Shown: positions 5,263 to 34,450, counted from the stretch's first letter. The stretch: 64,000 nt of DNA from a virus (IMGVR_UViG_3300049144_000095:96001-160000), one strand, 5' to 3'. Notes: generated by a model not told the origin, from the sequence alone. Numbers and translations are program-made.

Positions 5263-5299
5263 CGGGAGCGCCCCGGGGGACAACTCCGGGGCGCTGACG
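5263..5299 (+). repeat. intergenic stem-loop family member (CTGACG foot)
   Basis: CGGG-AGCGCCCCGG/CCGGGGCGCT-GACG. Confidence 0.7.
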
Positions 5300-5384
5300 C
5301 CAACTTGTCGCGACGGACGTAAAGGCGTCCGGGACTTAATCCGGACCCGGCGGTTGCCGGGTCCGGCGGAAAGGAAAGTCACGC

Positions 5385-5645
5385 ATGGGAATCACCACGG
5401 TTGTCACCGATGGCGGAATGGTCTTCCTGGACGACGCGCCGTTGCCGGTGCGGTCGGAAGACGTCGAGCCGCGCGACTCGGCCACGGTGCCTTCGGCACT
5501 GCGGGACCACGCGCACACCGTTCTGCCGAACGAGCCGGGTGACTGGTGGACGGTCGGGGAGTTCCGGGACAGGGACGGGGAGTTCACCACGGCCGTTGCC
5601 CGGCGGATTCCGGACGGGGTCGTGCGGTACGGGACGTCCGACTAG
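5385..5645 (+). CDS. hypothetical protein
   Basis: GCGGAAAGGAAAG upstream. Confidence 0.75.
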   Translation: MGITTVVTDGGMVFLDDAPLPVRSEDVEPRDSATVPSALRDHAHTVLPNEPGDWWTVGEFRDRDGEFTTAVARRIPDGVVRYGTSD

Positions 5646-5697
5646 GCGCATTCGCGCGGGTCGGCGACAGGTTGTCGGAAACGGAGAGGAAACGGTC

Positions 5698-6036
5698 ATG
5701 GGTGTTTCGCTGAGCAAGCCGGGCGACGCGTTGGGCACGTGGAGCGAAGGGGTCGGGGTGAAGGGTGAGCCGGTGCGGGTCATGGCCGGACTGCCGGTCC
5801 GCAAGATCAGGGGGCCGGTGATCCGGGTGTCCGGAATGCGCTATGCGGGACGGAACATCGTGTCCGTCGCGGTGGAACCGGTGCTGGGTGACCGCATCGG
5901 ACAGTCCACGCTGATCGCGGCGGACGGGGTGGAGCACAGTTACGGAGACGTCGGGCCGCTGCTCCGTCTGCGGTTCTGGTGGCTGCGCCACACGATTGAC
6001 GCCGGAACCTACGCGGGCATCGGCCGGATGCGCTAA
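5698..6036 (+). CDS. hypothetical protein
   Basis: ACGGAGAGGAA upstream. Confidence 0.75.
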   Translation: MGVSLSKPGDALGTWSEGVGVKGEPVRVMAGLPVRKIRGPVIRVSGMRYAGRNIVSVAVEPVLGDRIGQSTLIAADGVEHSYGDVGPLLRLRFWWLRHTIDAGTYAGIGRMR

Positions 6037-6044
6037 CCTGTTCG

Positions 6045-6056
6045 TGGCCTAGGCCG
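6045..6056. promoter_or_regulatory. Palindromic operator-like site 2 (TGGCCTAGGCCG)
   Basis: Intergenic; 22 bp before the next start. Confidence 0.75.
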
Positions 6057-6078
6057 ACGGAAGGGAGAGGGGAACGGA

Positions 6079-6408
6079 ATGACGCAGAACATGTTGGGTG
6101 AAGCGGAGCGATTCTGGGACCAGGACGCGCGGGAGTTCGTCTCCGGGCACATCGTGGTGCGGGTCTCGTTCGCGATGGATCTGTCGAGGCAGTGCGCGGC
6201 CCGGGGCGTGATGCTCACGGACGACGGAACCGTGTACACGTGGACGATCCGGCGTCCCGGCCACGAGGACATGAACGGCTGCCGGAGGATCGCGACGCGG
6301 GTACGCGGGACGCTCCGGGACAACGCGTTCGGCCTGCTGGAGTTCGAGCGGAAGTACGTCGAGCCCGGCCTGTACGTGCGGTACGGCGCGGCGATCAGGG
6401 CGCTGTAG
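6079..6408 (+). CDS. hypothetical protein
   Basis: ACGGAAGGGAGAGG upstream. Confidence 0.8.
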   Translation: MTQNMLGEAERFWDQDAREFVSGHIVVRVSFAMDLSRQCAARGVMLTDDGTVYTWTIRRPGHEDMNGCRRIATRVRGTLRDNAFGLLEFERKYVEPGLYVRYGAAIRAL

Positions 6409-6495
6409 GCACCGGGGAGTCGCGCTAGGGCGGCCGGGAGTCATTCCGGCCGCCCGGGGGTGTCGCCCGGCACTGAGGTACGGAAAGGGGAAGGC

Positions 6496-6966
6496 ATGTA
6501 CGAGGTTGTCCGACCGGAACGCAAGATCGGGACGTCGGACGGGTGGCGGACCGAGCCGGAACAGCGGCGCACGTTCCACACGGCGGCCGGTCTGTTCCGG
6601 TGGGCGCTGCGGGAGCGGGTGTTCAGTCACCGCACCGGCGGGGTGCCGTACCCGACCCGGTTCGATGACGTCCACCTGGGCGACCGGAACGGTGACGAGG
6701 GGTACGACTACCACCTGATCGACACGTTCACCCCGTGGGAGATCACGGGTGAGCATCTGGCCGCGATGCGCCGGGTGCAGCGCCGGTACGCGGAGATCGT
6801 TCACTACCTGCGGGAGGTCGAGCCGGGGTGGGAGCCGGACACGTCCGTGAGCCCGACCGGCAAGATCAGTTACGCGGACAACTCCGTGGTCCTGTACGAG
6901 ATCAGCAAGTACGGCGGGAAGCGGAGCCGGACGCTGGTCGCCCCGCACGGTGACGCCTGCTTCTGA
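6496..6966 (+). CDS. hypothetical protein
   Basis: ACGGAAAGGGGAAGG upstream. Confidence 0.8.
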   Translation: MYEVVRPERKIGTSDGWRTEPEQRRTFHTAAGLFRWALRERVFSHRTGGVPYPTRFDDVHLGDRNGDEGYDYHLIDTFTPWEITGEHLAAMRRVQRRYAEIVHYLREVEPGWEPDTSVSPTGKISYADNSVVLYEISKYGGKRSRTLVAPHGDACF

Positions 6967-6984
6967 CGGACCGGGACCGGCGGA

Positions 6985-7031
6985 CGGGAGCGCCCCCGGG
7001 CGGGGCGTTCCAGCCTGCCTATCGCGGCAGG
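6985..7031 (+). repeat. intergenic double stem-loop family member
   Basis: CGGGAGCGCCCC/GGGGCGTTCCAG then CCTGCC/GGCAGG. Confidence 0.75.
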
Positions 7032-7050
7032 TCGGAGAGGGGAACGGAAC

Positions 7051-7653: not shown

Positions 7654-7672
7654 CAGAACCGGAGTCGGCGGA

Positions 7673-7720
7673 CGGGAGCGCCCGGGATTCCGGGCGTTTC
7701 CACCTGCCTGCTGTGGCAGC
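7673..7720 (+). repeat. intergenic double stem-loop family member
   Basis: CGGGAGCGCCCGG/CCGGGCGTTTCCA then CTGCC/GGCAG. Confidence 0.75.
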
Positions 7721-7742
7721 GACCTTCGGGAAGAGAGAAGAA

Positions 7743-7940: not shown

Positions 7941-7965
7941 CGGAAGACAGGGAGAGGGGACGACG

Positions 7966-8205: not shown

Positions 8206-8222
8206 CAGTCGGGATCGGCGGA

Positions 8223-8270
8223 CGGGAGCGCCCGGGACTCCGGGCGTTCCAGCCTGTCAGTCGTGACAGG
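8223..8270 (+). repeat. intergenic double stem-loop family member
   Basis: CGGGAGCGCCCGG/CCGGGCGTTCCAG then CCTGTCA/TGACAGG. Confidence 0.75.
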
Positions 8271-8286
8271 AGGAAAGGGGAAGAGC

Positions 8287-9851: not shown

Positions 9852-9869
9852 AACGGTCTGGGCGGTGAT

Positions 9870-9908
9870 CTTCGGGGGCGTTCCGCTCTGCGGGACGTGC
9901 CCCGTGGG
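9870..9908 (+). repeat. intergenic stem-loop family member (CCGTGGG foot)
   Basis: CTTCGGGGGCG...TGCCCCGTGGG. Confidence 0.55.
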
Positions 9909-9952
9909 TTCCCGGTCGGGGACACGGGTGATGAAAGGGAGTGAAGTAGAGG

Positions 9953-10510: not shown

Positions 10511-10522
10511 CGGCCTAGGTCA
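10511..10522. promoter_or_regulatory. Palindromic operator-like site 3 (CGGCCTAGGTCA)
   Basis: Intergenic; matches consensus. Confidence 0.7.
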
Positions 10523-10580
10523 TTGTCATTTCACCGCTAGAGTCTGCACTGGGATCGCGGAAAGACGGAAAGGGAAGAAC

Positions 10581-10940
10581 GTGAAACTGAACCTGCGGCA
10601 TTCGGACAACGCGGGTACGGAACTGTGGCGTCAGTACCAGGACGTCCTGAGGGCGGCGAGCGCGGCCGACCAGCCGGGAACGCTTCCGACGGGCGCGAGC
10701 AAGGTCACCGCTACCCCGGCGGGCGGGGAGCTGAGCCAGCTTCCGCCCGAATGGCAGAAGGAAGCCGCGCACGCCTCGCACGTCATCTACCACTACGGAA
10801 CACCGATCGCCTGGATCGACGTCCGGGACAACGTGTGGGTCGTGCCGCCGGAGAAGTACAGCCCGGGAACCACCGGCGCCCAGAACCGCATCCGCGACCG
10901 GCTCGGGAACACGCCGTACCGCACGGCGCCGGTGGGCTGA
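10581..10940 (+). CDS. conserved phage-type hypothetical protein
   Basis: Y.YGTPIAW...W.VP..KYS.GTT..Q motif recalled from actinophage small proteins. Confidence 0.8.
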   Translation: MKLNLRHSDNAGTELWRQYQDVLRAASAADQPGTLPTGASKVTATPAGGELSQLPPEWQKEAAHASHVIYHYGTPIAWIDVRDNVWVVPPEKYSPGTTGAQNRIRDRLGNTPYRTAPVG

Positions 10941-10955
10941 CCGGTCGGTGACGTT

Positions 10956-10989
10956 CGGGAGCGCCCCGTGGAAGCGGGGCGTTCCAGTG
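10956..10989 (+). repeat. intergenic stem-loop family member
   Basis: CGGGAGCGCCCCG/CGGGGCGTTCCAGTG. Confidence 0.75.
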
Positions 10990-11017
10990 CATTACCGGAC
11001 GGAATGGGAGAAGAGAA

Positions 11018-11323
11018 ATGATGGACGGCATCCCGATGGTGCAGCTCAAGGACGGCGCCTCGGTTCCGAAGGTGACCGTGACGACGGCACTCATGAACCT
11101 TCAGCACCTCCGCAACACCAACCCGGTCGCCCTGTTCGAGCTGGTGGAGATCGCCCGGAACCCCGGTCACGTGCCGTTCCCCGGGACGAAGGACGCACTC
11201 CAGAAGATGAGCATGCTTGACGGGTTGGGGAAGATCCACGACGACACCCGGAAGGTCATCGTCAACGCCATCCCGGGGGACCTCATGGAGCTGCGGATCG
11301 TCGACCCGATGACCGGCGAGTAG
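11018..11323 (+). CDS. hypothetical protein
   Basis: GGGAGAAGAGAA upstream. Confidence 0.8.
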   Translation: MMDGIPMVQLKDGASVPKVTVTTALMNLQHLRNTNPVALFELVEIARNPGHVPFPGTKDALQKMSMLDGLGKIHDDTRKVIVNAIPGDLMELRIVDPMTGE

Positions 11324-11332
11324 GGGACGGAC

Positions 11333-11521
11333 ATGACGGACGCGGAGTACGTGGGGCGGGAGTTCCGTAAGGCGCTCAAGGACCGTGACGGTGGGCCGGT
11401 CGAGACGGTCCGCGTCAAGGCGGAGGGGCCGACGGGGAGTTCCCGCTGGGTCACCGTGAGCGTGGGGACGTGGGAGCGGATGATCGCCGCCGGGGTGGCG
11501 GCGATCGGGAAGAGTGAGTGA
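11333..11521 (+). CDS. hypothetical protein
   Basis: Co-oriented; coupled to the next ORF. Confidence 0.7.
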   Translation: MTDAEYVGREFRKALKDRDGGPVETVRVKAEGPTGSSRWVTVSVGTWERMIAAGVAAIGKSE

Positions 11522-11958
11522 TGGGGCACCGGGTCACACAGCGGCACGTCGAAGAGGTCAACCGGGGCGACCTGATCCAGGTTGCGGGCGGGTACGTCAT
11601 CGCGGACACCCTGAGTGCGCGCTCCGCGTCCTCGGCGGACCTCACACCCGTGCCGTTCTGGTATGACACGGACGGCGAGAGGCACTACCCGAACCCGACG
11701 GACAACACGCTGACGGTGGTGGACGACCCACCCTTCCAGACGCACGCGCACGGCCGGAGCGCCGGGAAGGACGCCGCCGGGCATGCGCTGGACAAGGCGG
11801 ATGCGGCGCTGTGCCCGGACGGGCGACGGTCCGGGACGCTGGACAAGTTGGAGTCCGGCACGGCCCTTGCGGCTGTCACGTGCAAGCCGTGCCGCCGGAT
11901 CATCGGGCTCGTCGGCCAGGCGCGCGGGGAGCGCAAGCGCGAGAGCAACGGGATCTGA
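11518..11958 (+). CDS. hypothetical protein with C-terminal zinc module
   Basis: H..ALC..VTCKPC; start overlaps upstream stop. Confidence 0.75.
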   Translation: MMGHRVTQRHVEEVNRGDLIQVAGGYVIADTLSARSASSADLTPVPFWYDTDGERHYPNPTDNTLTVVDDPPFQTHAHGRSAGKDAAGHALDKADAALCPDGRRSGTLDKLESGTALAAVTCKPCRRIIGLVGQARGERKRESNGI

Positions 11959-11960
11959 TC

Positions 11961-12140
11961 ATGGCGGAGACCTGGGACGGCCGGAACACCATGGTCTGCA
12001 CGTACGGGGGCGGCATTTCCGTGCTGACCACGGGCGGCGGGAAGCCTAGCGAAAGCGTCCAGTACACAGCGGAGGAGGCCCTGAAGCTGGCTGAGGAGAT
12101 CGCCGACGTAGCGCGTCGACAGCTCAGCGATCAGGGCTGA
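11961..12140 (+). CDS. hypothetical protein
   Basis: Co-oriented; GC3-rich. Confidence 0.7.
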   Translation: MAETWDGRNTMVCTYGGGISVLTTGGGKPSESVQYTAEEALKLAEEIADVARRQLSDQG

Positions 12141-12154
12141 CGGAAGGGGGAGGC

Positions 12155-12358
12155 ATGGACGGACTGACGGCGGAGGAAGTTGCCCGGGAGATCCGGGCGG
12201 AGGTGGAGATCGCGGACGAGGCGGACGACTTGGCCGCGCACCGCGCCCTGCGGATGCTCTCGAACAGGTTCAGCCGCTTGTTCATGGAGCGGAACCCCGG
12301 GTTCAGCGTCCCTGTGTTCGAGCGGGAGTGCGGACTGGTCGAGGACCGGGATTCATGA
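12155..12358 (+). CDS. hypothetical protein
   Basis: ACGGAAGGGGGAGG upstream. Confidence 0.75.
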   Translation: MDGLTAEEVAREIRAEVEIADEADDLAAHRALRMLSNRFSRLFMERNPGFSVPVFERECGLVEDRDS

Positions 12359-12654
12359 CGGTCCGGCTGGTCGCCGTGGATCCCTGGGACTGCGGCTGCA
12401 ACGAGTGCTGTACGGGCGAGTACGTTGCGCTCCGTTTCGCGACGGACGAGAACGTCGCGGACATGCTGGCCGGAAGGCTGGCGAACCACCTGAACAACGG
12501 GACGGAACTGGACGTCACGACCACGTACCGGGTCGATTCGACCGGCAGGCGCACGGAGTTGGCGGCGGAGCGGGTCACGGTCATCTACACGCACTACGAC
12601 GGGCAGAGCAAGACGTGGGAGCCGGACCCGTACCGTGCGGGCCTGATCAAGTAA
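12355..12654 (+). CDS. hypothetical protein
   Basis: ATGA overlap; CGCNEC motif. Confidence 0.75.
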   Translation: MTVRLVAVDPWDCGCNECCTGEYVALRFATDENVADMLAGRLANHLNNGTELDVTTTYRVDSTGRRTELAAERVTVIYTHYDGQSKTWEPDPYRAGLIK

Positions 12655-12676
12655 GACGGAAAGGGAGGAAACAGAA

Positions 12677-13159
12677 ATGGCGCAGTTCACGGAGACGCCG
12701 GGCCGCGAACGCAACCCCCTCGGCGGGCGGGAGGCCGACGGCTTCGATCAGTGGTTGCGGGAGGCCACGCAGCTCATGGGGGAGTCGGAGGACAGCCTCC
12801 GAGAGGAACTGCCCCTGGGTAACCCCATGCGCTACGTGGCCGTCGAGGCCTCCGCTCACTACGGGCGGATGCTGGGTGCCTGGAAGGAAGTCAGCAAGGG
12901 TCACGGGGGCGACGGGGCGCGGGACCGGTTCGAGGTCAACCTGATCTCGGCGGTGATGAGCGCCCACGGTGCGGCGGAGTACGCCCGGAGCCGGAGGTAC
13001 GGTCCGGACGACACCACGGCGGGCGGGCGGCCGATGGCGGACGTCGGGGCGGAGTACCTGCGGGCGTGCACGATCCTCGCGAAGTACGTGGGCGTCAACG
13101 AGCTGGACGTGCACGCCTGCGGCGGGGACCAGGCCAAGCTGTCCGCCCTGCGGGCCTGA
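12677..13159 (+). CDS. hypothetical protein
   Basis: ACGGAAAGGGAGG upstream. Confidence 0.8.
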   Translation: MAQFTETPGRERNPLGGREADGFDQWLREATQLMGESEDSLREELPLGNPMRYVAVEASAHYGRMLGAWKEVSKGHGGDGARDRFEVNLISAVMSAHGAAEYARSRRYGPDDTTAGGRPMADVGAEYLRACTILAKYVGVNELDVHACGGDQAKLSALRA

Positions 13160-13175
13160 CGGAAGGGGCGGAACG

Positions 13176-13412
13176 GTGGGCGTCGAATACACCGACCCGG
13201 GCAAGGTGTCGGAGGTCAGCGTCACACAAGTGCCGGTCAGTGGACAGACGGCGACCAGGTACGGGGCGAAGATCCCGACCTGTCACATGATCAAATACGA
13301 CGGTGCGTGGCGGAGGGTCTATGTCATGAACTACTCAACCCCGTACGTCAGGGTCACGGGACGCGATGTGGTGCTGGACTCGGAGACTCAGCACCGGCTG
13401 AACGTGATCTGA
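13176..13412 (+). CDS. conserved phage-type hypothetical protein
   Basis: YG.KIPT..M..Y.G.WRRVY motif recalled from small phage proteins. Confidence 0.75.
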   Translation: MGVEYTDPGKVSEVSVTQVPVSGQTATRYGAKIPTCHMIKYDGAWRRVYVMNYSTPYVRVTGRDVVLDSETQHRLNVI

Positions 13413-13424
13413 CGGAGCGGCGAT

Positions 13425-13477
13425 CTTCGGGGCGGCACGGGGGGTGACTCCGTGTGGCTCCGTGGGTCGGACGATCC
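13425..13477 (+). repeat. intergenic stem-loop family member (CCGTGGG foot)
   Basis: CTTCGGGG...CTCCGTGGGTCGGACGATCC; near copy at 14616. Confidence 0.65.
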
Positions 13478-13497
13478 GGACGGAAAGGAGTGGGGGC

Positions 13498-13689
13498 ATG
13501 GCTGACGGCACGGACAAAATCAAGATCGAGACGGCGGAGGACGGAACGCTCACGCTCTCGGGGTTGACCCCGAATCAGGGGTGGCTGATCTACAGCGGAC
13601 TCTGGCAGATGCTGACGGAGCAGGACGACGAGGAAGCTGGGCAGCTCGGCGAAGCCATCTCGGCCCAGCTCGGAGTCAACGGCCACTGA
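13498..13689 (+). CDS. hypothetical protein
   Basis: ACGGAAAGGAG upstream. Confidence 0.75.
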   Translation: MADGTDKIKIETAEDGTLTLSGLTPNQGWLIYSGLWQMLTEQDDEEAGQLGEAISAQLGVNGH

Positions 13690-13712
13690 GGCCGACGGAA
13701 AGGAGTGGGAAC

Positions 13713-14114
13713 GTGGCCTACGTGATTGAAGTCAACAAGCGGGACGTCTCGCGGTACGCGGAGGAGTGTGAGTTCAAGAACGACGACGACCACGAGTGCG
13801 ACGACCAGTGCCGCTACCTGGACGGGGACGTGCGGGAGATTCGCGACTACGGCAAGGCGGAGTACGAGTACGACCCGGACGACGCGGAGCTGTACGGGAC
13901 GCCGGTCCAGTGGGCGTCGGAGTACCTGGGAGGCCACAACTTCCCGGCTCTGAACAAGCCGCAGATCCACGACGGCAAGGTCAGCGAGCACGAGTGGCTG
14001 TCGGCCAGCGACCCGCACCCGTATCAGGAACACGAGACGGAGTACAGCATCTACCTGCGGGGGGACTGGACGCCGGAAGAGCGGGCGCAGGTCTTCGAAG
14101 CGGTCGGGCACTGA
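13713..14114 (+). CDS. highly acidic hypothetical protein
   Basis: 33 D/E of 133 aa (hand count); ACGGAAAGGAG upstream. Confidence 0.8.
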   Translation: MAYVIEVNKRDVSRYAEECEFKNDDDHECDDQCRYLDGDVREIRDYGKAEYEYDPDDAELYGTPVQWASEYLGGHNFPALNKPQIHDGKVSEHEWLSASDPHPYQEHETEYSIYLRGDWTPEERAQVFEAVGH

Positions 14115-14125
14115 GGGGGTTACGG

Positions 14126-14602
14126 GTGAAGCACACGTACCTGTACCCCCTGAAGGACGGGGAGCTGCCGCTCTGGCGGATGGCTCGCACGGGGGCGGCC
14201 GACCTGTTCGATTCCCCCCAGGAGGAACCGCCGAGCGTCATGTGGGAGCACTACATGCGGCTCAGCGACGCTCTGGGGGCCGCCCGGGACGAACTGCACA
14301 AGCGGCTGGAGTCCCGGGACCGCATCTGCATCGGGCGGCACTACATGATCCCCGGTTCACTGTGCGAGGTGGCACAGAGTCACGAGAGAGACGCGGATCA
14401 GGTGGTCCGCTACGTCACCCGGGAACTGTGGGACGCACCGCTGTTCTACGGGATCACGTGGGCCAACGTGGTCGGCACGCTCCAGAGGGCGGCGGGGCAG
14501 GACGGCCGTGACGAGTGGGCGGAGATCCAGGGGTTCTGCGCAGTCAACAGGATGTCGAAGGACAACGGGAAGGGCATTCGCGTGGTCCCGGTGTGGATGT
14601 GA
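14126..14602 (+). CDS. hypothetical protein
   Basis: GAGGGG upstream. Confidence 0.75.
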   Translation: MKHTYLYPLKDGELPLWRMARTGAADLFDSPQEEPPSVMWEHYMRLSDALGAARDELHKRLESRDRICIGRHYMIPGSLCEVAQSHERDADQVVRYVTRELWDAPLFYGITWANVVGTLQRAAGQDGRDEWAEIQGFCAVNRMSKDNGKGIRVVPVWM

Positions 14603-14615
14603 AGGGACCGACGTA

Positions 14616-14667
14616 CTTCGGGGGTGCGCGGGAGTGATCCCGCGTGCCTCCGTGGGCCGGACGATCC
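14616..14667 (+). repeat. intergenic stem-loop family member (CCGTGGG foot)
   Basis: CTTCGGGGGTGCGCGGGA/TCCCGCGTGCCTCCGTGGGCCGGACGATCC. Confidence 0.65.
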
Positions 14668-14685
14668 AAGCGGAAGGGAGAGAAC

Positions 14686-14922
14686 GTGGGTGAGGCCCGG
14701 CTGGACGAGGTCAACAGGAAGATCGCGGAACTGGAAGCGCGGAGAGCCGAACTCCTGGATCCGAAGCGACAGGAGATCCGGGAAGCGTACGGAGAGTTGG
14801 AGCGGGTCCTGAACCGGCTCGATGAGCTGGGTGAGAACGTGTCGAACGGCGACGGATATGCCGTCCATGTCGTCGGATCTCGGTTCCGCTACACGCACGG
14901 CGACGACCTTCAGGAGAGGTGA
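14686..14922 (+). CDS. coiled-coil hypothetical protein
   Basis: GCGGAAGGGAGAG upstream. Confidence 0.75.
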   Translation: MGEARLDEVNRKIAELEARRAELLDPKRQEIREAYGELERVLNRLDELGENVSNGDGYAVHVVGSRFRYTHGDDLQER

Positions 14923-14928
14923 AGAGAC

Positions 14929-15354
14929 ATGCTGGACAGTTGGGTGATCACGGACGCCGACGAGACCTGGGACTTCCGGGTCGAGGTCAAGCGGGACGAC
15001 CAAGCGGGACGGCCGGAGGGGAACGCCGACGTCTACGACGCCGAGATCATGGAGAAGGAGAGTCCCGAGGCGGTGCAGTGGGCCCGGGACGCCGTGAAGG
15101 CGTGGGAGCGCGACGACTGGTGCTTCGCCGTGATCTTCGTGACGCCGGTCCTCAAGGGAGCGGACGTCACCTTCGGTGAGGCCACGGACGTGCTCGGCGG
15201 GTGTGACTGGGGGTGGCTGCCCGGCGGGGAGGACGGGAAGGGCACGAACACCAGCGACCGCGACTATGCCCGGGAGGCCTGGATCAACGACATGATCGGC
15301 GAGGCCAAGAGCAAGGCGGGCGAACTACTGAAGAAGATCAAGGGTTCGGACTGA
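14929..15354 (+). CDS. acidic hypothetical protein (paralog of 32482-32883)
   Basis: 32 D/E of 141 aa (hand count); W.F..+.VTPV motif. Confidence 0.8.
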   Translation: MLDSWVITDADETWDFRVEVKRDDQAGRPEGNADVYDAEIMEKESPEAVQWARDAVKAWERDDWCFAVIFVTPVLKGADVTFGEATDVLGGCDWGWLPGGEDGKGTNTSDRDYAREAWINDMIGEAKSKAGELLKKIKGSD

Positions 15355-15364
15355 AGGGCGCCTC

Positions 15365-15673
15365 GTGGAGATCGCAGTAAGCGGCCAGACGATCACGTGC
15401 GTGACCCGAGGGGAGTTCACGGGCAGGCGGCCTGAGTTCGACGTCGCCTTCGGCACCTCCGGAGCGTATGTCGCGGTGGAGTACGAGTGCCGGTTCACCT
15501 ACGACAACGGACAGTGGGACACGCGCGCTGTCACGGTCGTGGGTGCTGCCAAGAAGGGCGATGGGAGCGTCGGCCGCCGCACGCGCAGCGTGCACTTCAT
15601 CGTGAGTGCCGAGGGCACCCCGGACTGGGTGCCGTCCCTCATCGAGCGCGTTCGCGCGACCATCACGTTCTGA
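15365..15673 (+). CDS. hypothetical protein (paralog of 46474-46809)
   Basis: W..V.VVG..K.G.G..R...V.F..G.PDW. Confidence 0.75.
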   Translation: MEIAVSGQTITCVTRGEFTGRRPEFDVAFGTSGAYVAVEYECRFTYDNGQWDTRAVTVVGAAKKGDGSVGRRTRSVHFIVSAEGTPDWVPSLIERVRATITF

Positions 15674-15700
15674 CGTACGGACGGAAGGGAGAAGGAATGG

Positions 15701-15991
15701 ATGAGCGGCAAGGTGCTGGGCGACTACGCCATCCTCAAGGACTCGGTGCATGACGCGCTCAACTACGAGTCGGAGGACCAGCGGTACATGATCCTCTCGA
15801 CGGGTGTGCACGGCGACGGTCCGGAGTACGGGCACGGAGTCTCGTTCGCCACGACGCTCGGCAGGGCGCACGGTGACGCCGACTGGGCGGGAACCTACGG
15901 GAAGCACTCGATCGTCGTGGACCTGGAGAACATGGTGTTCACGCCATGGGACAAGCTGCCGGTCGTGTACGACAGCACGAACGAGGGCTGA
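15701..15991 (+). CDS. hypothetical protein
   Basis: ACGGAAGGGAGAAGG upstream. Confidence 0.8.
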   Translation: MSGKVLGDYAILKDSVHDALNYESEDQRYMILSTGVHGDGPEYGHGVSFATTLGRAHGDADWAGTYGKHSIVVDLENMVFTPWDKLPVVYDSTNEG

Positions 15992-16007
15992 CCGAAGCGT
16001 GCCGGTT

Positions 16008-16040
16008 CGGGAGGGTGCGGCGCAGCCGTGCCTTCCAGTG
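16008..16040 (+). repeat. intergenic stem-loop family member
   Basis: CGGGAGGGTGCGG/CCGTGCCTTCCAGTG. Confidence 0.7.
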
Positions 16041-16076
16041 CCAGTACGAAACGGACGGAAAGGACAAGAAACGATC

Positions 16077-16574
16077 ATGACCAAGAGCCTGGACGAACTG
16101 CTGCACGGACCGAGCGCGCTGCCGGTGCTGGTGCGGGCCGACGGGACTTACGAGACGGCCGCGTACCCGCCCGTCACGATGGCGGAGTATGCCCCGGAGT
16201 CGATCATGATCGACTGGTCGGGCGACTGGGACATGCCCGACGTACTGGAAGGACACGAGCGTGACGCCATCGCTCGTATCGAGAACGGGTGGCGGGTGCT
16301 GACCGGGTGGGCCGGACCGGGAACTCTGTTCATCTTCGACGCCGGTCAGCGGCACTTCGGGCGCGACCTGGAGGAACACATCCTGGAGACGCCGGGCCTA
16401 TGGGCGATCGTCTCGGTGGAAATACAGCCGCCGCACTGTGACGTCGGGGACGACGGGATGCCGTGTGCCGATTTCGCGGAGCACGAGCGCTGCGAACACG
16501 TCGACTGCCTGGCAGAGTCGCAGGCGGCCGGATGGGCGCTGATCCACAAGGAAATCCCGGAGGGCGGGAAGTGA
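16077..16574 (+). CDS. conserved phage-type hypothetical protein
   Basis: GW.VL.GW.G...F...G.DLEEHILETPG.W motif; Cys/His tail. Confidence 0.8.
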   Translation: MTKSLDELLHGPSALPVLVRADGTYETAAYPPVTMAEYAPESIMIDWSGDWDMPDVLEGHERDAIARIENGWRVLTGWAGPGTLFIFDAGQRHFGRDLEEHILETPGLWAIVSVEIQPPHCDVGDDGMPCADFAEHERCEHVDCLAESQAAGWALIHKEIPEGGK

Positions 16575-16792
16575 GCGGATCGGCGGAGCTGAACTGGGTG
16601 ACCTGGAACGGCCACCCGGCAAGCGGTACCAGGTACCAGGAAGCCACGGACGGCGACGGTAAGACGTGGGCACGGGTGCGGGTGGGTGAGGAAGTCGTGT
16701 TCGGTCCGACAGTCGACACCGACAAGGCGTATGCGGAGTACAACCGCAGGTACGTCGACTACACGAGCAAGATCGAGAAGGAGAACGCGTGA
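16571..16792 (+). CDS. hypothetical protein
   Basis: GTGA overlap. Confidence 0.7.
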   Translation: MSGSAELNWVTWNGHPASGTRYQEATDGDGKTWARVRVGEEVVFGPTVDTDKAYAEYNRRYVDYTSKIEKENA

Positions 16793-17223
16793 CGCACTAC
16801 AGCATCGGCGAGGAACGCGACGGATCGTTCGAGGGCTGGCGGGAGTGGCCGTTCCTGATCGACGGCGACGAGCGCGGCAAGGTCGAGTACACCGGCAAGG
16901 GATACCGGGCGGACGTCACGTACACCGGCGTCGAGCGGCTGTCCCTGCGCCTGGCCGTGGCCGACGGGGAGCGGCAGGCGGAGGCGAAGCGTGGCCAGTT
17001 CTCCGGGACCGGGGTGAACGTCGAGGTCAGGGCGCTCGCCGCCACGGACACGAAGCCGTCCCGGCTGGCGGTCATCGCCGGGGACGGCACCCGCACGGAA
17101 GTGCCGTGGGATCACAGCTACGAGGGGATCCGGCTCGCCGAGACGGCGGTCCGGCGGATGATGCCAGACGCGGAGCCGGTGTACATCAAGGGCACCAAAG
17201 ACGGCTGGCTGTTCCGGATCTGA
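16789..17223 (+). CDS. hypothetical protein
   Basis: GTGA overlap; GAAGGAG upstream. Confidence 0.8.
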   Translation: MTHYSIGEERDGSFEGWREWPFLIDGDERGKVEYTGKGYRADVTYTGVERLSLRLAVADGERQAEAKRGQFSGTGVNVEVRALAATDTKPSRLAVIAGDGTRTEVPWDHSYEGIRLAETAVRRMMPDAEPVYIKGTKDGWLFRI

Positions 17224-17237
17224 GGAAAGGGAAGATC

Positions 17238-17624
17238 GTGACTGACACCTGGCGGGTCGAAGACATCCCGGCCTATCAGTTCGACGGCAGCGGACGGCGC
17301 CCGATGACGGACGAGGACGCGGCAATGTCCGCCCCGTCCGTTCTGATCAGGGACGTCACGCTGGAGGAGGCGCAGCGCAAGCTGTTCGGACACCTGACCG
17401 CCAACCGTGAGTACGCCAAGCGGCGCAACGGGGACCGCGCCTACACCGAGGCAATCGAGGCTCTGGGGCGCGGTGTCCGCATGGTCCAGGTCGGCGGGCG
17501 GGGTTTCCGCATCAGGGACGTCGCCGCCTGTGAAGGAGAGCACGGCCTGTACAAGAACTGCGCGGTCTGCACCCCCGAGAACCACCCGAAGTTCGATCCC
17601 ATCGTCCTGCGTCCGTACCGCTGA
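17238..17624 (+). CDS. hypothetical protein with C-terminal C.H..CxxC
   Basis: GGAAAGGGAAG upstream. Confidence 0.8.
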   Translation: MTDTWRVEDIPAYQFDGSGRRPMTDEDAAMSAPSVLIRDVTLEEAQRKLFGHLTANREYAKRRNGDRAYTEAIEALGRGVRMVQVGGRGFRIRDVAACEGEHGLYKNCAVCTPENHPKFDPIVLRPYR

Positions 17625-17635
17625 GCGGGGATGTT

Positions 17636-17681
17636 CGGGAAGATTCGGAGTCTTCCACTCCGGATTCCGAATCTTCCAGTG
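17636..17681 (+). repeat. intergenic stem-loop family member
   Basis: 12-bp stem GGAAGATTCGGA/TCCGAATCTTCC then AGTG. Confidence 0.75.
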
Positions 17682-17735
17682 CATCTCTGACCGGTGACGA
17701 ACAACCCGAATCGGAACGAAATAGGAGAAGGAGAC

Positions 17736-18430: not shown

Positions 18431-18443
18431 CGGCGGGAGCATT

Positions 18444-18480
18444 CGGGAGGGTTCCGGGCTGAATTCGGAACCTTCCAGTG
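18444..18480 (+). repeat. intergenic stem-loop family member
   Basis: CGGGAGGGTTCCG/CGGAACCTTCCAGTG. Confidence 0.75.
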
Positions 18481-18530
18481 TGTTCCTGATCCACATGAAC
18501 ACCTTGAATCTTGACGGAAGGGAGTAAAAG

Positions 18531-19165: not shown

Positions 19166-19185
19166 CGGAACGGAGAAGAGGCGTA

Positions 19186-20287: not shown

Positions 20288-20299
20288 CCGCCCCTGCGG

Positions 20300-20335
20300 T
20301 TCGGGCGTGCACGGATCTCGCCGTGCACGCCCGTG
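20300..20335 (+). repeat. intergenic stem-loop family member
   Basis: TTCGGGCGTGCACGG/CCGTGCACGCCCGTG. Confidence 0.65.
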
Positions 20336-20361
20336 TTGTACAGACGAAAGGGAGAGCGAAG

Positions 20362-20721: not shown

Positions 20722-20731
20722 CGGAGGGGTC

Positions 20732-20917
20732 ATGACGAGCATCGCACGCATGATCGAAGTGCTTCAGAACGTACCGGAGGGGATGCAGGGCAAGACGCTC
20801 GTCCTGTTCGGCCCGCAGGGTCAGCGGTGGACGGTGCGGGAGGACGTCACTCAGCTCAACGTGCAGGGGGACGAGATCCACGTGTTCGTCGAACCGCAGG
20901 AGCGGCCCTCCGTGTGA
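20732..20917 (+). CDS. hypothetical protein
   Basis: GGAGGGG upstream. Confidence 0.7.
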   Translation: MTSIARMIEVLQNVPEGMQGKTLVLFGPQGQRWTVREDVTQLNVQGDEIHVFVEPQERPSV

Positions 20918-20919
20918 TT

Positions 20920-20951
20920 CGGGAGCGCCCGGAGGGGGCCGGGCGCTGACG
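20920..20951 (+). repeat. intergenic stem-loop family member (CTGACG foot)
   Basis: CGGGAGCGCCCGG/CCGGGCGCTGACG. Confidence 0.7.
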
Positions 20952-20984
20952 TGTCCCACGGAGGCAACGGAAGGGGAAGCGCAA

Positions 20985-21224: not shown

Positions 21225-21237
21225 TCACCACGCGTCA

Positions 21238-21270
21238 CGGGAGCGTCCGGACTCGCGCCGGGCGCTGACG
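21238..21270 (+). repeat. intergenic stem-loop family member (CTGACG foot)
   Basis: CGGGAGCGTCCGG/CCGGGCGCTGACG. Confidence 0.7.
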
Positions 21271-21312
21271 CGTCTCGTGGTGAGACGTAATCGAACGGAC
21301 TGGAGAAGAGAC

Positions 21313-21867: not shown

Positions 21868-22475
21868 ACCTGAACCTGACGGGCCTCCGGGTCGTCGCCG
21901 ACGTGAAGGGTCAGACGGTCTACGGGGTGGCCAGGGTGCGCTACCTGGACGGCCACCGGAACGCCGGTACCTACGAACTGGAGCGCAACGGTCAGCCGCC
22001 AGTCCTGGTGCCGTGGGAGGACTGCTCACCGGGCCCCAACTGGGTGGACACCCCAGAGGAGCACCGGTTCGCCGGAACAGAGTTCTACCGACCCGCCTTT
22101 CTGGACGAGACGCGCCGGGCCTACCTGACGGCGGGGTGCGGGGTGATTGTTCCGGGTGACATGGACCAGCTCCGCAACCTGATCGCCAAGGTCGAACCGG
22201 GCGACAGCGTGAACTGGTACAACTACGGCGCGAACGAGTTCCGGGGTGATCTCACGGTCGACTCGAAGGACGAGCGAGAGGTAGCACTCTCGGGATCGGC
22301 GAACGCACCGAAGTCGTATCGGTGGCCGGACGCCGAGGAGTTCGGTCCACAGTACGCGCACGAGTTCGAGGTCGCCGGTACCGCCCTGCACATCGTGAGG
22401 GTGCCTCCGGCCCGGACGGGCAAGCACCCCTCCCGTTCCCTGTCGCTCACGTTCCGGCGCCCGAGGGTGCTCTGA
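21864..22475 (+). CDS. hypothetical protein
   Basis: GTGA overlap; GC3-rich. Confidence 0.8.
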   Translation: MNLNLTGLRVVADVKGQTVYGVARVRYLDGHRNAGTYELERNGQPPVLVPWEDCSPGPNWVDTPEEHRFAGTEFYRPAFLDETRRAYLTAGCGVIVPGDMDQLRNLIAKVEPGDSVNWYNYGANEFRGDLTVDSKDEREVALSGSANAPKSYRWPDAEEFGPQYAHEFEVAGTALHIVRVPPARTGKHPSRSLSLTFRRPRVL

Positions 22476-22489
22476 AGAAAGGGGAGATC

Positions 22490-22741
22490 ATGGAATCCAG
22501 GGAGATCGACCTGCCGGAGGGATACCTCACGGTGAAGGTGCCGGGCGGGATCGTGGTGATCTCGGCGGGGCTGATCGACACGCGCACCAAGGACCCGGTG
22601 GTCGTCGTGAACGTCGACTCCAAGCACGAGTCCTCGCCGGACAGTGACGACCGGCTGTGGACCGTGGACGAGTTCCGTCCGTACGGCAAGCCGGGTGAGG
22701 TCAAGATGCGCGGCGTGAAGTGGAAGAAGGGGGGCGCATGA
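22490..22741 (+). CDS. hypothetical protein
   Basis: GAAAGGGGAG upstream. Confidence 0.75.
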   Translation: MESREIDLPEGYLTVKVPGGIVVISAGLIDTRTKDPVVVVNVDSKHESSPDSDDRLWTVDEFRPYGKPGEVKMRGVKWKKGGA

Positions 22742-22983
22742 GCTACGAGGCCTACGAGTTCAACCCGGGGCCGGGCGGGGTCGAAGTGGTGAAGGTGCCA
22801 CAGATGGACGTCCCTCGGCGCCTGCTGAAGGACGTGCGCAAGGGCCGGGTCGTCATCAGTGGCCAGGTGGAGCACCAGGACTCCGGGGAGACGGCGGTCT
22901 CGATCGTCTGGGGCCCTCACCGCAGGACGGACGGCAGTCGTCCGGTGCTCGCCTGGTACGAGTGCCTGGGACGCGATAGCTGA
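22738..22983 (+). CDS. hypothetical protein
   Basis: ATGA overlap. Confidence 0.75.
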   Translation: MSYEAYEFNPGPGGVEVVKVPQMDVPRRLLKDVRKGRVVISGQVEHQDSGETAVSIVWGPHRRTDGSRPVLAWYECLGRDS

Positions 22984-23035
22984 ACGCCTGGACGGTAATT
23001 CAGGCAAGAGTCACGAACGGGCTACTGAGTTCTGC

Positions 23036-23052
23036 TATCGTGGCCTAGGCCG
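23036..23052 (+). promoter_or_regulatory. -10-like TATCGT fused to palindrome site 4 (TGGCCTAGGCCG, 23041-23052)
   Basis: Intergenic; TAnnnT shares its last T with the palindrome. Confidence 0.75.
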
Positions 23053-23059
23053 ACGGGTT

Positions 23060-23097
23060 CGGGAGTGGCCGGTCCTTCACGGGACCGGCCACTGACG
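23060..23097 (+). repeat. intergenic stem-loop family member (CTGACG foot)
   Basis: CGGG-AGTGGCCGGTCC/GGACCGGCCACT-GACG. Confidence 0.75.
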
Positions 23098-23122
23098 TAC
23101 TTGCCGGACACGGAAGGGAGAA

Positions 23123-27161: not shown

Positions 27162-27222
27162 CAAGCTGCACCGGGGCGGCCGGTACCCTCCGGCCGCCCC
27201 CCACCGGAGGGGAAGGAACGGG

Positions 27223-28960: not shown

Positions 28961-29389
28961 ATGGGCTGGGTACTGCACGAGGAGCCCTGGACGGACGACG
29001 GCGAGTACTCCCCGCTTCAGGTCGGGAAGGCCGCGCACATTCGCTTCAGGCACACGGACAAGCCCGGACGGCTGCTGACCATGAGTGCCTACCCGATGGC
29101 GCCGGAGGTCGAAGTCGTGACTCATAAGGACACGGTCGAGACGTTCCACGGCTACAAGGCCGACATGGACAAGCTCGCGGTCGAAGTACACACCGAGTTC
29201 ATGATCTGCGACGACATCCGCGACCCCGGGGGCACCGAGAACTGGTGCGACTACCGGTGCAAGCGCCTCAACACCGCCTACAGCGGCATCGATGGCGAGA
29301 AGGTTCGGGCGGCCGAGGCGGACGCTCTGAAATTCGTCCGCCGCTTCAACGGCGAGCGGGACATCGACTGGGACGGCGAGCGGTTCTGA
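28961..29389 (+). CDS. hypothetical protein (tandem paralog of 28401-28940)
   Basis: ACGGAAAGGGG upstream. Confidence 0.8.
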   Translation: MGWVLHEEPWTDDGEYSPLQVGKAAHIRFRHTDKPGRLLTMSAYPMAPEVEVVTHKDTVETFHGYKADMDKLAVEVHTEFMICDDIRDPGGTENWCDYRCKRLNTAYSGIDGEKVRAAEADALKFVRRFNGERDIDWDGERF

Positions 29390-29400
29390 GCCGGTGCGTT

Positions 29401-29434
29401 CGGGAGGACAGGACGCGCGTCCTGTCCTCCAGTG
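29401..29434 (+). repeat. intergenic stem-loop family member
   Basis: Perfect 12-bp stem GGAGGACAGGAC/GTCCTGTCCTCC then AGTG. Confidence 0.75.
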
Positions 29435-29461
29435 CACATCGGATCGGAGAAGGGACAAAGG

Positions 29462-32481: not shown

Positions 32482-32883
32482 ATGCAGATGATCGACTGGT
32501 GGACGGTTCGGGGTGAAATCTGGGGGGTCGAAAACCTCGATTTCAAGGTCGAGCTGCACCCCGTGGACGACTACATGCTGGTGGATCTCGACGGATACAC
32601 GGCCGTCGAGCAGATGGCCCTGAGCGAGGGGCACTGGCGCTTCGTGAAGGTCGTCGTCACGCCCGTCGGGAAGGATCTCATCGACCACATCTATGCACGG
32701 CAGAGCCGGGACGGTGTCGCGTGGGGGGACCTGCCCGATGGGCGGGTGGACCGGGACGACGTCCTCGACATCGCCAAGGAGCTGGCGGTGCAGGCGGTCA
32801 TCGAGCTGGACAGAGGCGGCTTCACCCTGGAGGTTGCCGAAGGGAGCGACTTCGCTCCTGAGAAGCTGACGGCACCGTTCTGA
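32482..32883 (+). CDS. acidic hypothetical protein (paralog of 14929-15354)
   Basis: TCGGAAAGGA upstream; W.FV.V.VTPV..WG.LP. Confidence 0.8.
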   Translation: MQMIDWWTVRGEIWGVENLDFKVELHPVDDYMLVDLDGYTAVEQMALSEGHWRFVKVVVTPVGKDLIDHIYARQSRDGVAWGDLPDGRVDRDDVLDIAKELAVQAVIELDRGGFTLEVAEGSDFAPEKLTAPF

Positions 32884-32932
32884 CGGGAGTCTGCGGTGCC
32901 TCGCTCGCCGGGGCGCCGTGGAGTCCTGCCAG
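32884..32932 (+). repeat. intergenic stem-loop family member (variant)
   Basis: CGGGAG-14-bp GU-rich stem-CCTGCCAG. Confidence 0.5.
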
Positions 32933-32953
32933 CCGGAAGGAAAGGAGAAGGGC

Positions 32954-33157
32954 GTGTTCACACTTCACCTGCACTACCCGCAGACCCCTGTCGCCAAGGG
33001 GGATGTGGTGACCGTTCGGTCGACCTACGTGCCGCCCATCGGCATGGAGATCTACAGTCCCCACTCGGCGGCGTACCGGGTGACCAACGTGCTCGCCGGG
33101 ATCACGGACGGGGTCCTCGACGAGGACTTCAACGTGCTCCTCGAAGCCACCGACTGA
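32954..33157 (+). CDS. hypothetical protein
   Basis: GGAAAGGAGAAGG upstream. Confidence 0.7.
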   Translation: MFTLHLHYPQTPVAKGDVVTVRSTYVPPIGMEIYSPHSAAYRVTNVLAGITDGVLDEDFNVLLEATD

Positions 33158-33171
33158 AAGAGGGGAGAAGG

Positions 33172-33462
33172 GTGAACGTCAGGGAACTGCCCCGCAAGGT
33201 CGACGGTCTCCCCGTCGTCAAGGCCACCTACCTGGGATGGCTCAACAACTACAGCGCCGAACCCGGCTACTTCTGTGCGGTCATCACCTACGGCGAGGCG
33301 CACACCGGGAAGGGTAACGGGTTCCACTTCTTCATCCTGCGGGCGCTCGGGCTGGACAAGCCGTGGCTCCGCATCGAGAGCGCCTGGGGCCTCGGGAACG
33401 GTGATGCCAACGCCAGGCTGACGGAAGCCGAGAAGCTGGCCGAGTGGCCGAGGGGGGACTGA
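33172..33462 (+). CDS. hypothetical protein
   Basis: GAAAGAGGGGAGAAG upstream. Confidence 0.75.
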   Translation: MNVRELPRKVDGLPVVKATYLGWLNNYSAEPGYFCAVITYGEAHTGKGNGFHFFILRALGLDKPWLRIESAWGLGNGDANARLTEAEKLAEWPRGD

Positions 33463-33800
33463 TGGACGTCGGGATCGATGGACCCAGCTCCCTCTCCGGT
33501 TTCACGATCCGGGAACTGCTGAGGGAGGCGGCCGGACTCGCCGTCGAAGAGGACGCGCCGGACGTCCGAAGGTCGGCTTGCGAGATGAGGGATCTGTTCG
33601 CCGGACAGGGCACGCCCCGCCTCTCCCTCGCTCAGGTTGAGGCGTACACCGAGGTCATCGAACTGGCCGTGGAGTATGAGAGCGGCGTGACACCATACCC
33701 ACCGGACGAGTTCGCCACGGAAGACGACCGCCGCTCCTACGCGGTGACGCAGCACGGCGAGGAGCTGGTGCACGCCGTGCGCTGGCTCGGTGGAAACTGA
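33462..33800 (+). CDS. acidic hypothetical protein
   Basis: TGATG overlap. Confidence 0.75.
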   Translation: MDVGIDGPSSLSGFTIRELLREAAGLAVEEDAPDVRRSACEMRDLFAGQGTPRLSLAQVEAYTEVIELAVEYESGVTPYPPDEFATEDDRRSYAVTQHGEELVHAVRWLGGN

Positions 33801-33820
33801 CTACGGATAAGGGGAAGAAC

Positions 33821-34159
33821 ATGAACGACGCGACCGGATTGAAAACGATCTCCTGCGAGAGCGGGCTGCACTTCATGGAGTCCAGCCGGGAGCCGATCTT
33901 CCACACTGTGGGTCATGACGGGTCTCACGGTCTGGCCACTCTGGATGTCATCAAGCTCTGGACCCGCCAGGTCATCACCAACGGCTACGACTTCGACGTC
34001 TACTACGCCGAACTGTACGCCGGGATGCCGAACGAACCGAAGCTGCTTCGCTGCAACCTCGGGTTCGCCGGAACCGACAAGAAGCCGAAGCTGATCGTCA
34101 CCATCGACAAGGACCAGGACGGCTGGCTCGCCGGGGTCCTCTGGACCAGCGACCTCTGA
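33821..34159 (+). CDS. hypothetical protein
   Basis: AAGGGGAAG upstream. Confidence 0.8.
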   Translation: MNDATGLKTISCESGLHFMESSREPIFHTVGHDGSHGLATLDVIKLWTRQVITNGYDFDVYYAELYAGMPNEPKLLRCNLGFAGTDKKPKLIVTIDKDQDGWLAGVLWTSDL

Positions 34160-34173
34160 ACGGAAGGACAGAC

Positions 34174-34401
34174 ATGGCAAAGACGCCCGGCGACAAGTGG
34201 CCGACGCTGTGCCAAGGCAAGATGCATCCGTGGGGTGAGAGACCGCCCGCCGCTCTGGCCACGTATGACCTGAAGTGGACGGTCATCGACTCGGATGGCG
34301 AGCCGGGCGGACAGGAGACCGCCGTGCGTCGCCTCTGCCCCGAGTGCAAAGCCCGGCATGAGGCGCATGGGGTACAGGTGACGCCTCACCGATTCGACTA
34401 G
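34174..34401 (+). CDS. hypothetical protein with C..H / CxxC
   Basis: ACGGAAGGA upstream. Confidence 0.75.
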   Translation: MAKTPGDKWPTLCQGKMHPWGERPPAALATYDLKWTVIDSDGEPGGQETAVRRLCPECKARHEAHGVQVTPHRFD

Positions 34402-34411
34402 GCCGGTCGGC

Positions 34412-34450
34412 TTCCGGGGGGCACGGGTCGCGCGCCCGTGCCTCTCGGTG
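34412..34450 (+). repeat. intergenic stem-loop family member (variant)
   Basis: TTCCGGGGGGCACGGG/CCCGTGCCTCTCGGTG. Confidence 0.5.

Follow-up and report, generated by a model that had tools for sequence, protein, structure and literature searches.

We analyzed a stretch of 64,000 nucleotides (nt), referred to here as the window, from the IMG/VR virus record IMGVR_UViG_3300049144_000095 (bases 96001–160000 of 251,159 bp; GC content ~66%), in which a family of structured hairpins stands between small genes. The sequencing runs listed for this DNA are five soil DNA runs. From ~2.1 kb to 62.8 kb, the window is filled by small, co-directional + strand genes that form one array. The first gene of the array encodes a protein of 612 amino acids (aa), and a tblastn search against cultured phages returned relatives of it only in the cluster BM Streptomyces phages, namely Kela, Satis, JustBecause, and Frankenweenie and their near-copies, whose genomes are ~185 to 200 kb. 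In BM phages, this gene lies ~2.5 kb from the right physical end of the genome and heads a similar array; the ends of BM genomes are defined and carry a terminal repeat of 1 kb (PMC6687918). Judging from these relatives, the host of the phage is probably a Streptomyces species, and the position and gene content of the array suggest that it is presumably expressed early. Ten array proteins had no match in Pfam, and one of them matched a PHROG of unknown function. For the 612-aa protein, an ESM Atlas search was uninformative, and a locus search with this protein alone returned no viral relatives.

An earlier description of the window, made without database searches (hereafter, the sequence-only reading), had proposed a family of about 18 intergenic stem-loops with conserved feet and free stems. 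GC-rich hairpins with the proposed feet were present at all 18 coordinates. We aligned 16 of these sites using MAFFT, which placed all three classes of foot in one register, and built a covariance model (R1) on the alignment. Across the whole 251-kb genome, R1 recovered the 16 seeds and one further site at 9861–9915, giving 17 sites that are all on the + strand and all between window positions 5251 and 34459 (Table 1). A second covariance model (R2), built from 114 hits in this phage and its relatives, returned the identical 17 sites, with scores dropping from 36 to 22 bits below the last member. The 17 members score 32 to 61 bits, the next best matches score 22 to 25 bits, and the reverse strand does not exceed 25 bits. 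All copies fall inside one 29-kb block of the genome, so the proposal that they are confined to the first 35 kb of the window held up in the whole-genome searches. The family has 17 members rather than 18, however, because one listed site, 32884, falls outside it. There, a stop codon is followed by a long hairpin (32884–32930, +) whose 5' foot reads CGGGAG. Neither R1 nor R2 recovered this hairpin, which may be a decayed copy or unrelated.

Several other hairpins and repeat types were considered alongside the family. A scan anchored on CGGG with downstream folding gave 1,536 matches in this 66% GC genome and was non-discriminating. The same array also contains plain GC-rich intergenic hairpins that lack the foot and the outer stem described below (3957–3982, 4224–4252, 6428–6455, and 27173–27200, all +). 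Repeats resembling repetitive extragenic palindromes and bacterial interspersed mosaic elements (REP/BIME) or miniature inverted-repeat transposable elements (MITE) were ruled out, since the stems of the family differ from one another, occur on the gene strand only, and are limited to the one 29-kb block.

Table 1. Copies of the hairpin family and other features of the phage. Positions count from the first base of the window, except those prefixed G000:C1, which are positions in the genome record. Orthologous copies are given as locus and position.
Feature	Position	Strand	Foot (5'...3')	R1 (bits)	R2 (bits)	Remarks
Hairpin	5251..5310	+	GACGGGAG...CTGACGCC	47.5	47.3	A.C junction, G.A and G.G mismatches; starts 5 nt past stop codon at 5245; orthologues L017:7105, L014:7536
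Hairpin	6973..7024	+	GACGGGAG...TTCCAGCC	47.3	49.1	Starts 6 nt past stop codon at 6966
Hairpin	7661..7713	+	GACGGGAG...TTTCCACC	50.8	49.8	Starts 7 nt past stop codon at 7653
Hairpin	8211..8263	+	GACGGGAG...TTCCAGCC	53.5	57.4	Orthologue L014:7132
Hairpin	9861..9915	+	TTCGGGGG...CCCCGTG	32.4	40.6	Non-seed; bulge in 3' arm; orthologue L028:7428
Hairpin	10944..10998	+	TTCGGGAG...TTCCAGTG	60		U.G, U.U, C-G, G.A; starts 3 nt past stop codon; start codon 19 nt beyond end; orthologues in 10 sources with common outer arms and differing inner stems
Hairpin	13416..13473	+	TTCGGGGC...CTCCGTG	46.9		Starts 3 nt past stop codon
Hairpin	14607..14663	+	TTCGGGGG...CTCCGTG	45.4		Starts 4 nt past stop codon
Hairpin	15996..16049	+	TTCGGGAG...TTCCAGTG	51.1		Starts 4 nt past stop codon
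Hairpin, long inner stem	17624..17690	+	TTCGGGAA...TTCCAGTG	51.7		1-nt overlap with stop codon
Hairpin	18432..18489	+	TTCGGGAG...TTCCAGTG	54.5		3' arm and foot match L015:11228 and L014:13418
Hairpin	20290..20344	+	TTCGGGCG...GCCCGTG	50.4		Starts 2 nt past stop codon; start codon 17 nt beyond end
Hairpin	20908..20962	+	TTCGGGAG...CTGACGTG	58.8	60.8	Upstream stop codon within outer stem; orthologues L015:13347, L017:15195, L014:15341 have other foot classes
Hairpin	21226..21281	+	CACGGGAG...CTGACGCG	44.8	36.3	
-10-like hexamer TATCGT abutting operator palindrome GGCCTAGGCC	23036..23051	+				Putative promoter; predicted start at hairpin base
Leader-copy hairpin between putative promoter/operator and gene	23048..23108	+		48.2		TATCGT and GGCCTAGGCC upstream
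Hairpin	29389..29443	+	TTCGGGAG...CTCCAGTG	52.4		
Last hairpin	34402..34459	+	TTCCGGGG...CTCGGTG	47.2	49	Directly after stop codon at 34401
U-tailed hairpin terminator, then TACGAT and operator GGCCTAGGTC	35299..35355	+				Closes the hairpin-bearing block
Tyrosine recombinase	G000:C1:69150-69632	-				PF00589, 79.9 bits; 398-aa open frame; sole one in genome; ~32 kb before first hairpin
TROVE/Ro60 gene	G000:C1:223763-223987	+				This phage's copy

Each element is built in two tiers. The 9- to 14-bp stem-loops first described correspond to the inner hairpin with its feet, which had been recognized correctly, but an outer stem of 8 to 9 bp that flanks the feet had been missed. The full element is ~57 nt long and contains a median of 21 bp (range 17 to 28), with a median folding energy of −36.7 kcal/mol. 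The outer stem occupies columns 3–11 and 83–91 of alignment A5 and measures 8 to 9 bp in 58 of 85 copies, seldom more, whereas the inner stem (11 to 15 bp, with a loop of 3 to 8 nt) is freely variable. At the junction of outer stem and foot (columns 12 and 82), 84 of the 85 distinct copies carry a mismatch, which is U.U in 59 and A.C in 25. This mismatch co-varies with the adjoining pair (U.G in 58 copies, G-C in 25). Next to the junction stands an invariant C13-G81 pair. G14 lies opposite A in 43 copies, forming a G.A mismatch, and opposite C in 37; G15 lies opposite C in 71 and A in 13; and G18 lies opposite C in 52, U in 18, and G in 13. Regardless of the partner, the CGGG of the 5' strand is near-invariant (C13 in 85 of 85 copies, G14 in 81, G15 in 84, and G18 in 83). 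The G.A mismatch reported at the base of the stem is therefore a feature of about half of the copies, and those of foot class C are fully paired at this point.

Three copies in this phage can also fold differently. At 6985–7050, 7673–7730, and 8223–8275, the 3' outer arm (CCTGCC or CCTGTCA) can form an alternative small downstream hairpin, which accounts for the second hairpins that the sequence-only reading had described. This alternative hairpin competes with the outer stem and excludes it, and it is not conserved in the BM phages, so a put-like element made of two hairpins is not supported. Two further structural classes were considered and dropped: a trans- or cis-acting ribozyme, because the element is a simple stem that leaves too few conserved bases unpaired and the sequence on either side of its UUC triplet is variable, and a K-turn, because the 3-nt bulge of that motif is absent.

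The family lies on the gene strand only. Paired columns of the alignment contain 270 G.U combinations and 62 A.C combinations, and therefore the folded molecule is the + strand, that is, the mRNA strand. Placement relative to the genes is also narrow. Of the 77 copies that could be scored, 74 begin between 10 nt before and 12 nt after the upstream stop codon, and in some copies the stop codon lies within the outer stem. An extended Shine-Dalgarno (SD) sequence resembling ACGGAAGGGAG begins 0 to 5 nt past the helix, and the next start codon follows 10 to 47 nt past the end of the element in 111 of 112 cases, in agreement with the original statement that every stem-loop is followed by an SD and a gene. 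Because the intergenic region consists of the hairpin and the ribosome-binding site and leaves no room for a promoter, transcription must read through. Gene-strand-only scores, the excess of G.U, strong covariation, and the fixed position between stop codon and ribosome-binding site all support an RNA-level cis element, as had been proposed.

Relatives of the family were obtained by tblastn against cultured phages and by a foot-pattern scan of IMG/VR. In the whole records of Kela, Satis, and Frankenweenie, R1 found 11 to 15 copies each, all on the gene strand, and the stretch of JustBecause that was examined holds ~14 further copies. In the three whole records, the copies lie within ~40 kb of the right genome end, most of them within 25 kb. 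The bare foot pattern occurred in 24 IMG/VR contigs, of which only seven, all large similar contigs (69 to 260 kb), contained model matches. The other 17 viral contigs had no model match, indicating chance occurrence of the pattern, which is also found by chance in at least 120 bacterial contigs. Altogether, the family comprises 114 copies from 12 phage sources, 85 of which are distinct.

Using the 85 distinct copies in an alignment that is itself fitted to the model, we found that 88.9% of cells pair, versus 64.9% in shuffles and at most 47% in slid registers. Both sides have changed in 20 of 22 pairs. These values exceed chance by a wide margin and bear out the earlier observation that the stems differ in sequence and stay paired. 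Clustering by outer arms yielded orthologous sets that keep their arms and foot and have unrelated inner stems. For one such set (the copy at 29389; n = 5), a model-free analysis with MAFFT and RNAalifold recovered the same structure, including the U.U and G.A mismatches, with seven compensatory pairs. The foot class may switch within an orthologous set, as between the copy at 20908 and its BM orthologues, and the UUC...GUG and the mismatch are retained. Orthologous copies are collinear between phages.

The set that includes 29389–29443 is also instructive about gene order. Its members (L014:20537, L015:18864, L016:20648, and L017:21193, in addition to the copy in the window) share the outer arms CCGGTGCG and TGCACATCGG. 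Among the five phages, this one orthologous hairpin is preceded by either of two genes and followed by any of three. Because its flanking genes differ between phages, the hairpins appear to stand at boundaries of mosaic modules, where they may serve as recombination anchors.

Beyond these phages, the family was not recognized in the collections that we searched. Rfam 15 gave no match at the gathering score over the window and none at E values up to 1 over positions 5000–35000. The family proper was not found in 101 Streptomyces genomes, where only 55 of ~9,000 candidates per genome were scored, so that absence is not established. In these genomes, the model picked only scattered perfect palindromes, which have no mismatch and score on either strand. 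Those in Streptomyces chromosomes at L162–L171 are perfect palindromes of 25 to 28 bp, ACGGGAAGGCCCGG...CCGGGCCTTCCCGT, with equal scores on both strands, and they look like ordinary bidirectional, terminator-like hairpins. The genome announcement of Satis and JustBecause does not mention the family, and we found no description of it in the literature.

One copy occupies a position different from the rest. Here a -10-like hexamer that abuts an operator palindrome comes first, then the hairpin (23048–23108), and after it an SD and a gene. Kela, Satis, Frankenweenie, and JustBecause share this arrangement. The operator palindrome has 10 exact occurrences in the window, each directly after a TANNNT-like hexamer, which suggests a promoter; a transcript from the putative promoter at 23036–23051 would begin at the base of the hairpin. 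Efficient termination by this hairpin would be self-defeating, because it stands between the promoter and that promoter's own gene. The operator sites from 10512 to 23042 enclose nine hairpins and about 30 genes. Downstream of the block, three modules (35299–35355, 43930–43982, and 50775–50829) combine a hairpin terminator, a TANNNT hexamer, and an operator of the form GRCCTAGGYC; two of the three hairpins are U-tailed, and the modules look like boundaries of transcription units. U-tailed hairpins precede putative promoters at 35299 (operator at 35346), at 50775 (operator at 50820), and elsewhere in the genome.

We tentatively favor the interpretation that the hairpins are intercistronic processing and stabilizing signals of the kind known from phage T7, cut at the foot by the RNase III of the host. 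According to this model, host RNase III would recognize a helix of two turns and cut it at the foot, which would split a long polycistronic transcript into units. A hairpin would be left at the 3' end of the upstream message, where it would block 3' exonucleases, and the message downstream would start just before its own ribosome-binding site. Two features of T7-type sites are seen here: the hairpins hold intercistronic or leader positions in a co-directional polycistronic unit, and they provide at least 20 bp (two turns) of double-stranded RNA, at the median, with an internal loop and conserved flanks. Of the three analogies offered by the sequence-only reading, that with T7 RNase III sites fits best in geometry, foot, density, and the leader copy, while cleavage itself is a prediction. 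Streptomyces possesses an RNase III (AbsB), and the S. coelicolor enzyme prefers G-C duplexes and cuts the internal loop of the rpsO-pnp intergenic hairpin (PMC10126417). A search of the phage genome found no gene for an RNase III or for a protein with a double-stranded RNA-binding domain.

The distal part of the array, which is free of family hairpins, contains two intergenic candidates for type II hammerhead ribozymes (RF02276) at 43257–43317 and 58020–58082 (both +). They score 24 and 30 bits against a gathering score of 37, and both have intact CUGANGA and GAAA cores. The presence of such candidates between genes suggests that cutting between cistrons belongs to the expression mode of this phage.

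Several points weigh against processing by RNase III. Bacterial RNase III requires little sequence, and the near-invariant CGGG together with the obligatory mismatch suggests a reader more specific than this enzyme. When we folded the rpsO-pnp hairpin from three Streptomyces genomes, it had no evident motif in common with the foot. Moreover, transcripts in Streptomyces usually end at a long, stable hairpin whose U-tract is weak (PMC12207403), so partial termination at the family hairpins is possible. Finally, both the promoter at 23036–23051 and the early timing of the array are inferred.

Other explanations of the hairpins leave the transcript uncut. They may be passive stabilizers or insulators that stop polynucleotide phosphorylase (PNPase; 3' to 5') and RNase J (5' to 3') at cistron borders and keep the adjacent ribosome-binding site unobstructed by upstream sequence. 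This explanation, which we regard as rather doubtful, agrees with the great stability of the hairpins and with their exact position between stop codon and SD, and the leader copy would be the 5'-terminal structure of a primary transcript, a classic layout for a 5' stabilizer. A mere block, however, needs neither an outer stem of fixed length, nor a mismatch at one position in nearly all copies, nor an invariant CGGG, and the same array holds plain hairpins without a foot (3957, 4224, 6428, and 27173). It is also unlikely that the hairpins act as leaky intrinsic signals of the Streptomyces type that terminate or attenuate transcription without a U-tract, which would set an expression gradient along the array. 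In Streptomyces, 3' ends at long, stable hairpins have only 3 to 4 U in the next 10 nt (PMC12207403), and U-less terminators have reportedly been recorded in the early region of phiC31 (Ingham et al. 1995, cited in PMC3993855). The elements closely follow stop codons, and the 10 nt of 3' arm after the inner hairpin contain a median of 3 U. Yet a covarying outer stem pairs this would-be tail, and past the full helix the median falls to 1 U in 10 nt (range 0 to 3), consistent with the original remark that none of the stem-loops has a U-tail. A scan for the terminator consensus found none at the family sites. Nor is a position at the end of a unit kept throughout, given the conserved order of putative promoter/operator, hairpin, and gene at 23048, while nine copies lie between two consecutive recognizable promoters with just 17 to 45 nt to the next start codon. 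Elsewhere, the phage places U-tailed terminators before its promoters, and termination leaves the conservation of the foot unexplained. Taken together, the family hairpins are not efficient terminators.

The foot might instead be read by a factor of the phage itself. A phage-encoded RNA-binding factor with a whole class of genes as its target could dock there, an idea to which we give a low probability; candidates are a nuclease that shuts off early mRNA (similar to T4 RegB), an antiterminator, a translational regulator, or phage Ro60/Y RNA together with host PNPase. In a related form that we consider similarly improbable, the foot would be an address label by which a phage-specific RNA-protein system marks one temporal class of messages, and not an RNase III signal. 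The label might be read by an endonuclease dedicated to it, by a factor for translation or antitermination, or by the phage's Ro60/Y RNA, which together with host PNPase would remove early mRNAs capped by hairpins when expression switches to later genes. The 5' strand is conserved in sequence whatever its partner, and non-Watson-Crick combinations (U.U or A.C, G.A, and G.G) are maintained, which favors a factor of this kind. The family is limited to one phage clade and one gene block, and the Streptomyces chromosomes sampled yielded no hairpin of the family proper. In addition, all five hairpin-bearing phages that were checked (this phage, Kela, Satis, Frankenweenie, and JustBecause) encode a TROVE/Ro60 protein (53 to 59 bits). 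This co-occurrence falls within a single clade, however, and so is not independent evidence; it invites a link but does not support one. The ten array proteins likewise offered no candidate, with nothing in Pfam and the single PHROG of unknown function. We consider it very improbable that the hairpins work as single-stranded DNA, either as attC-like sites for cassette recombination or as priming or replication signals. Small genes, each followed by an imperfect hairpin with conserved ends, do recall an integron array, and the 29389 hairpin has different flanking genes in different phages. But the mismatches are symmetric 1x1 mismatches, extrahelical bases and an R/L box consensus are absent, and no recombinase adjoins the array; the sole tyrosine recombinase is encoded 32 kb away, on the opposite strand. 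Together with the collinearity of orthologous hairpins, these features leave the proposed attC-like site unsupported, and the many G.U pairs and strict co-orientation with the genes fit RNA better.

Whichever reader proves right, the hairpins constitute a structured RNA family with good support and no entry in Rfam. They give a first handle on how large Streptomyces phages organize the expression of many small unknown genes, and they are natural, portable intercistronic parts for high-GC hosts. Genetic tools are at hand, as Satis, JustBecause, and Kela are cultured and Streptomyces coelicolor strains with an rnc null mutation exist. Should RNase III turn out to read the hairpins, their invariant mismatches would identify determinants used by an actinobacterial RNase III; otherwise, the family implies a new RNA-binding factor of phage origin.

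Among known systems, the closest comparison is with the T7 sites R0.3, R0.5, R1, R1.1, and R1.3. In both cases, hairpins recur between the genes of a co-directional operon near a genome end, at a density of about one per 1.6 to 1.7 kb, and one copy stands between promoters and the first gene (R0.3 in T7, and 23048 here, where the promoter is putative). When folded here, R0.3 to R1.3 formed two-tier hairpins of 20 to 25 bp with conserved feet. Both families have two tiers with ~20 to 25 bp in total, an internal loop flanked by conserved sequence, and covariation in their variable parts. They differ in that the internal loop of the T7 sites is larger and asymmetric and their upper stems are far better conserved. 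In the phage family, the helix is interrupted by one or two 1x1 mismatches (U.U or A.C, followed by G.A) that flank an invariant C-G pair, and the 5' strand carries an invariant CGGG. Cutting is proven for T7 and predicted for the family.

Further comparisons are with a phage of a Gram-positive host, with 3' ends in Streptomyces, and with integrons. Panganiban and Whiteley reportedly described in 1983 three near-identical hairpins in SP82 early mRNA that are sites for the RNase III of B. subtilis, one of them an mRNA stabilizer. By that account, SP82, a large phage that infects a Gram-positive bacterium, resembles the family in that hairpin sites recur in its early transcripts; the host and the sequences differ, as does the number of sites (three in SP82 versus 11 to 17 per genome in the family). 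The U-less terminators reported for the phiC31 early region and the Streptomyces 3' ends with a long hairpin and a weak U-tract (PMC12207403) are likewise GC-rich, very stable, without a U-tail, and located after genes in a Streptomyces phage or host, whereas the family has a covarying outer stem that pairs the tail, a conserved mismatched foot, and a conserved copy downstream of a putative promoter. The host hairpins found by the model in Streptomyces differ in being perfect palindromes with equal scores on both strands. Like the family, integron attC sites are imperfect hairpins in which the ends are conserved and the middle varies, placed after small, promoterless, arrayed genes; the family differs in having no extrahelical bases, R/L boxes, or adjoining integrase, and its arrays are collinear between relatives. 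Phage intercistronic hairpins that resemble RNase III sites are a well-known kind of element, and what is new here is a family of them in actinophages, with its mismatch signature and its conservation throughout a clade.

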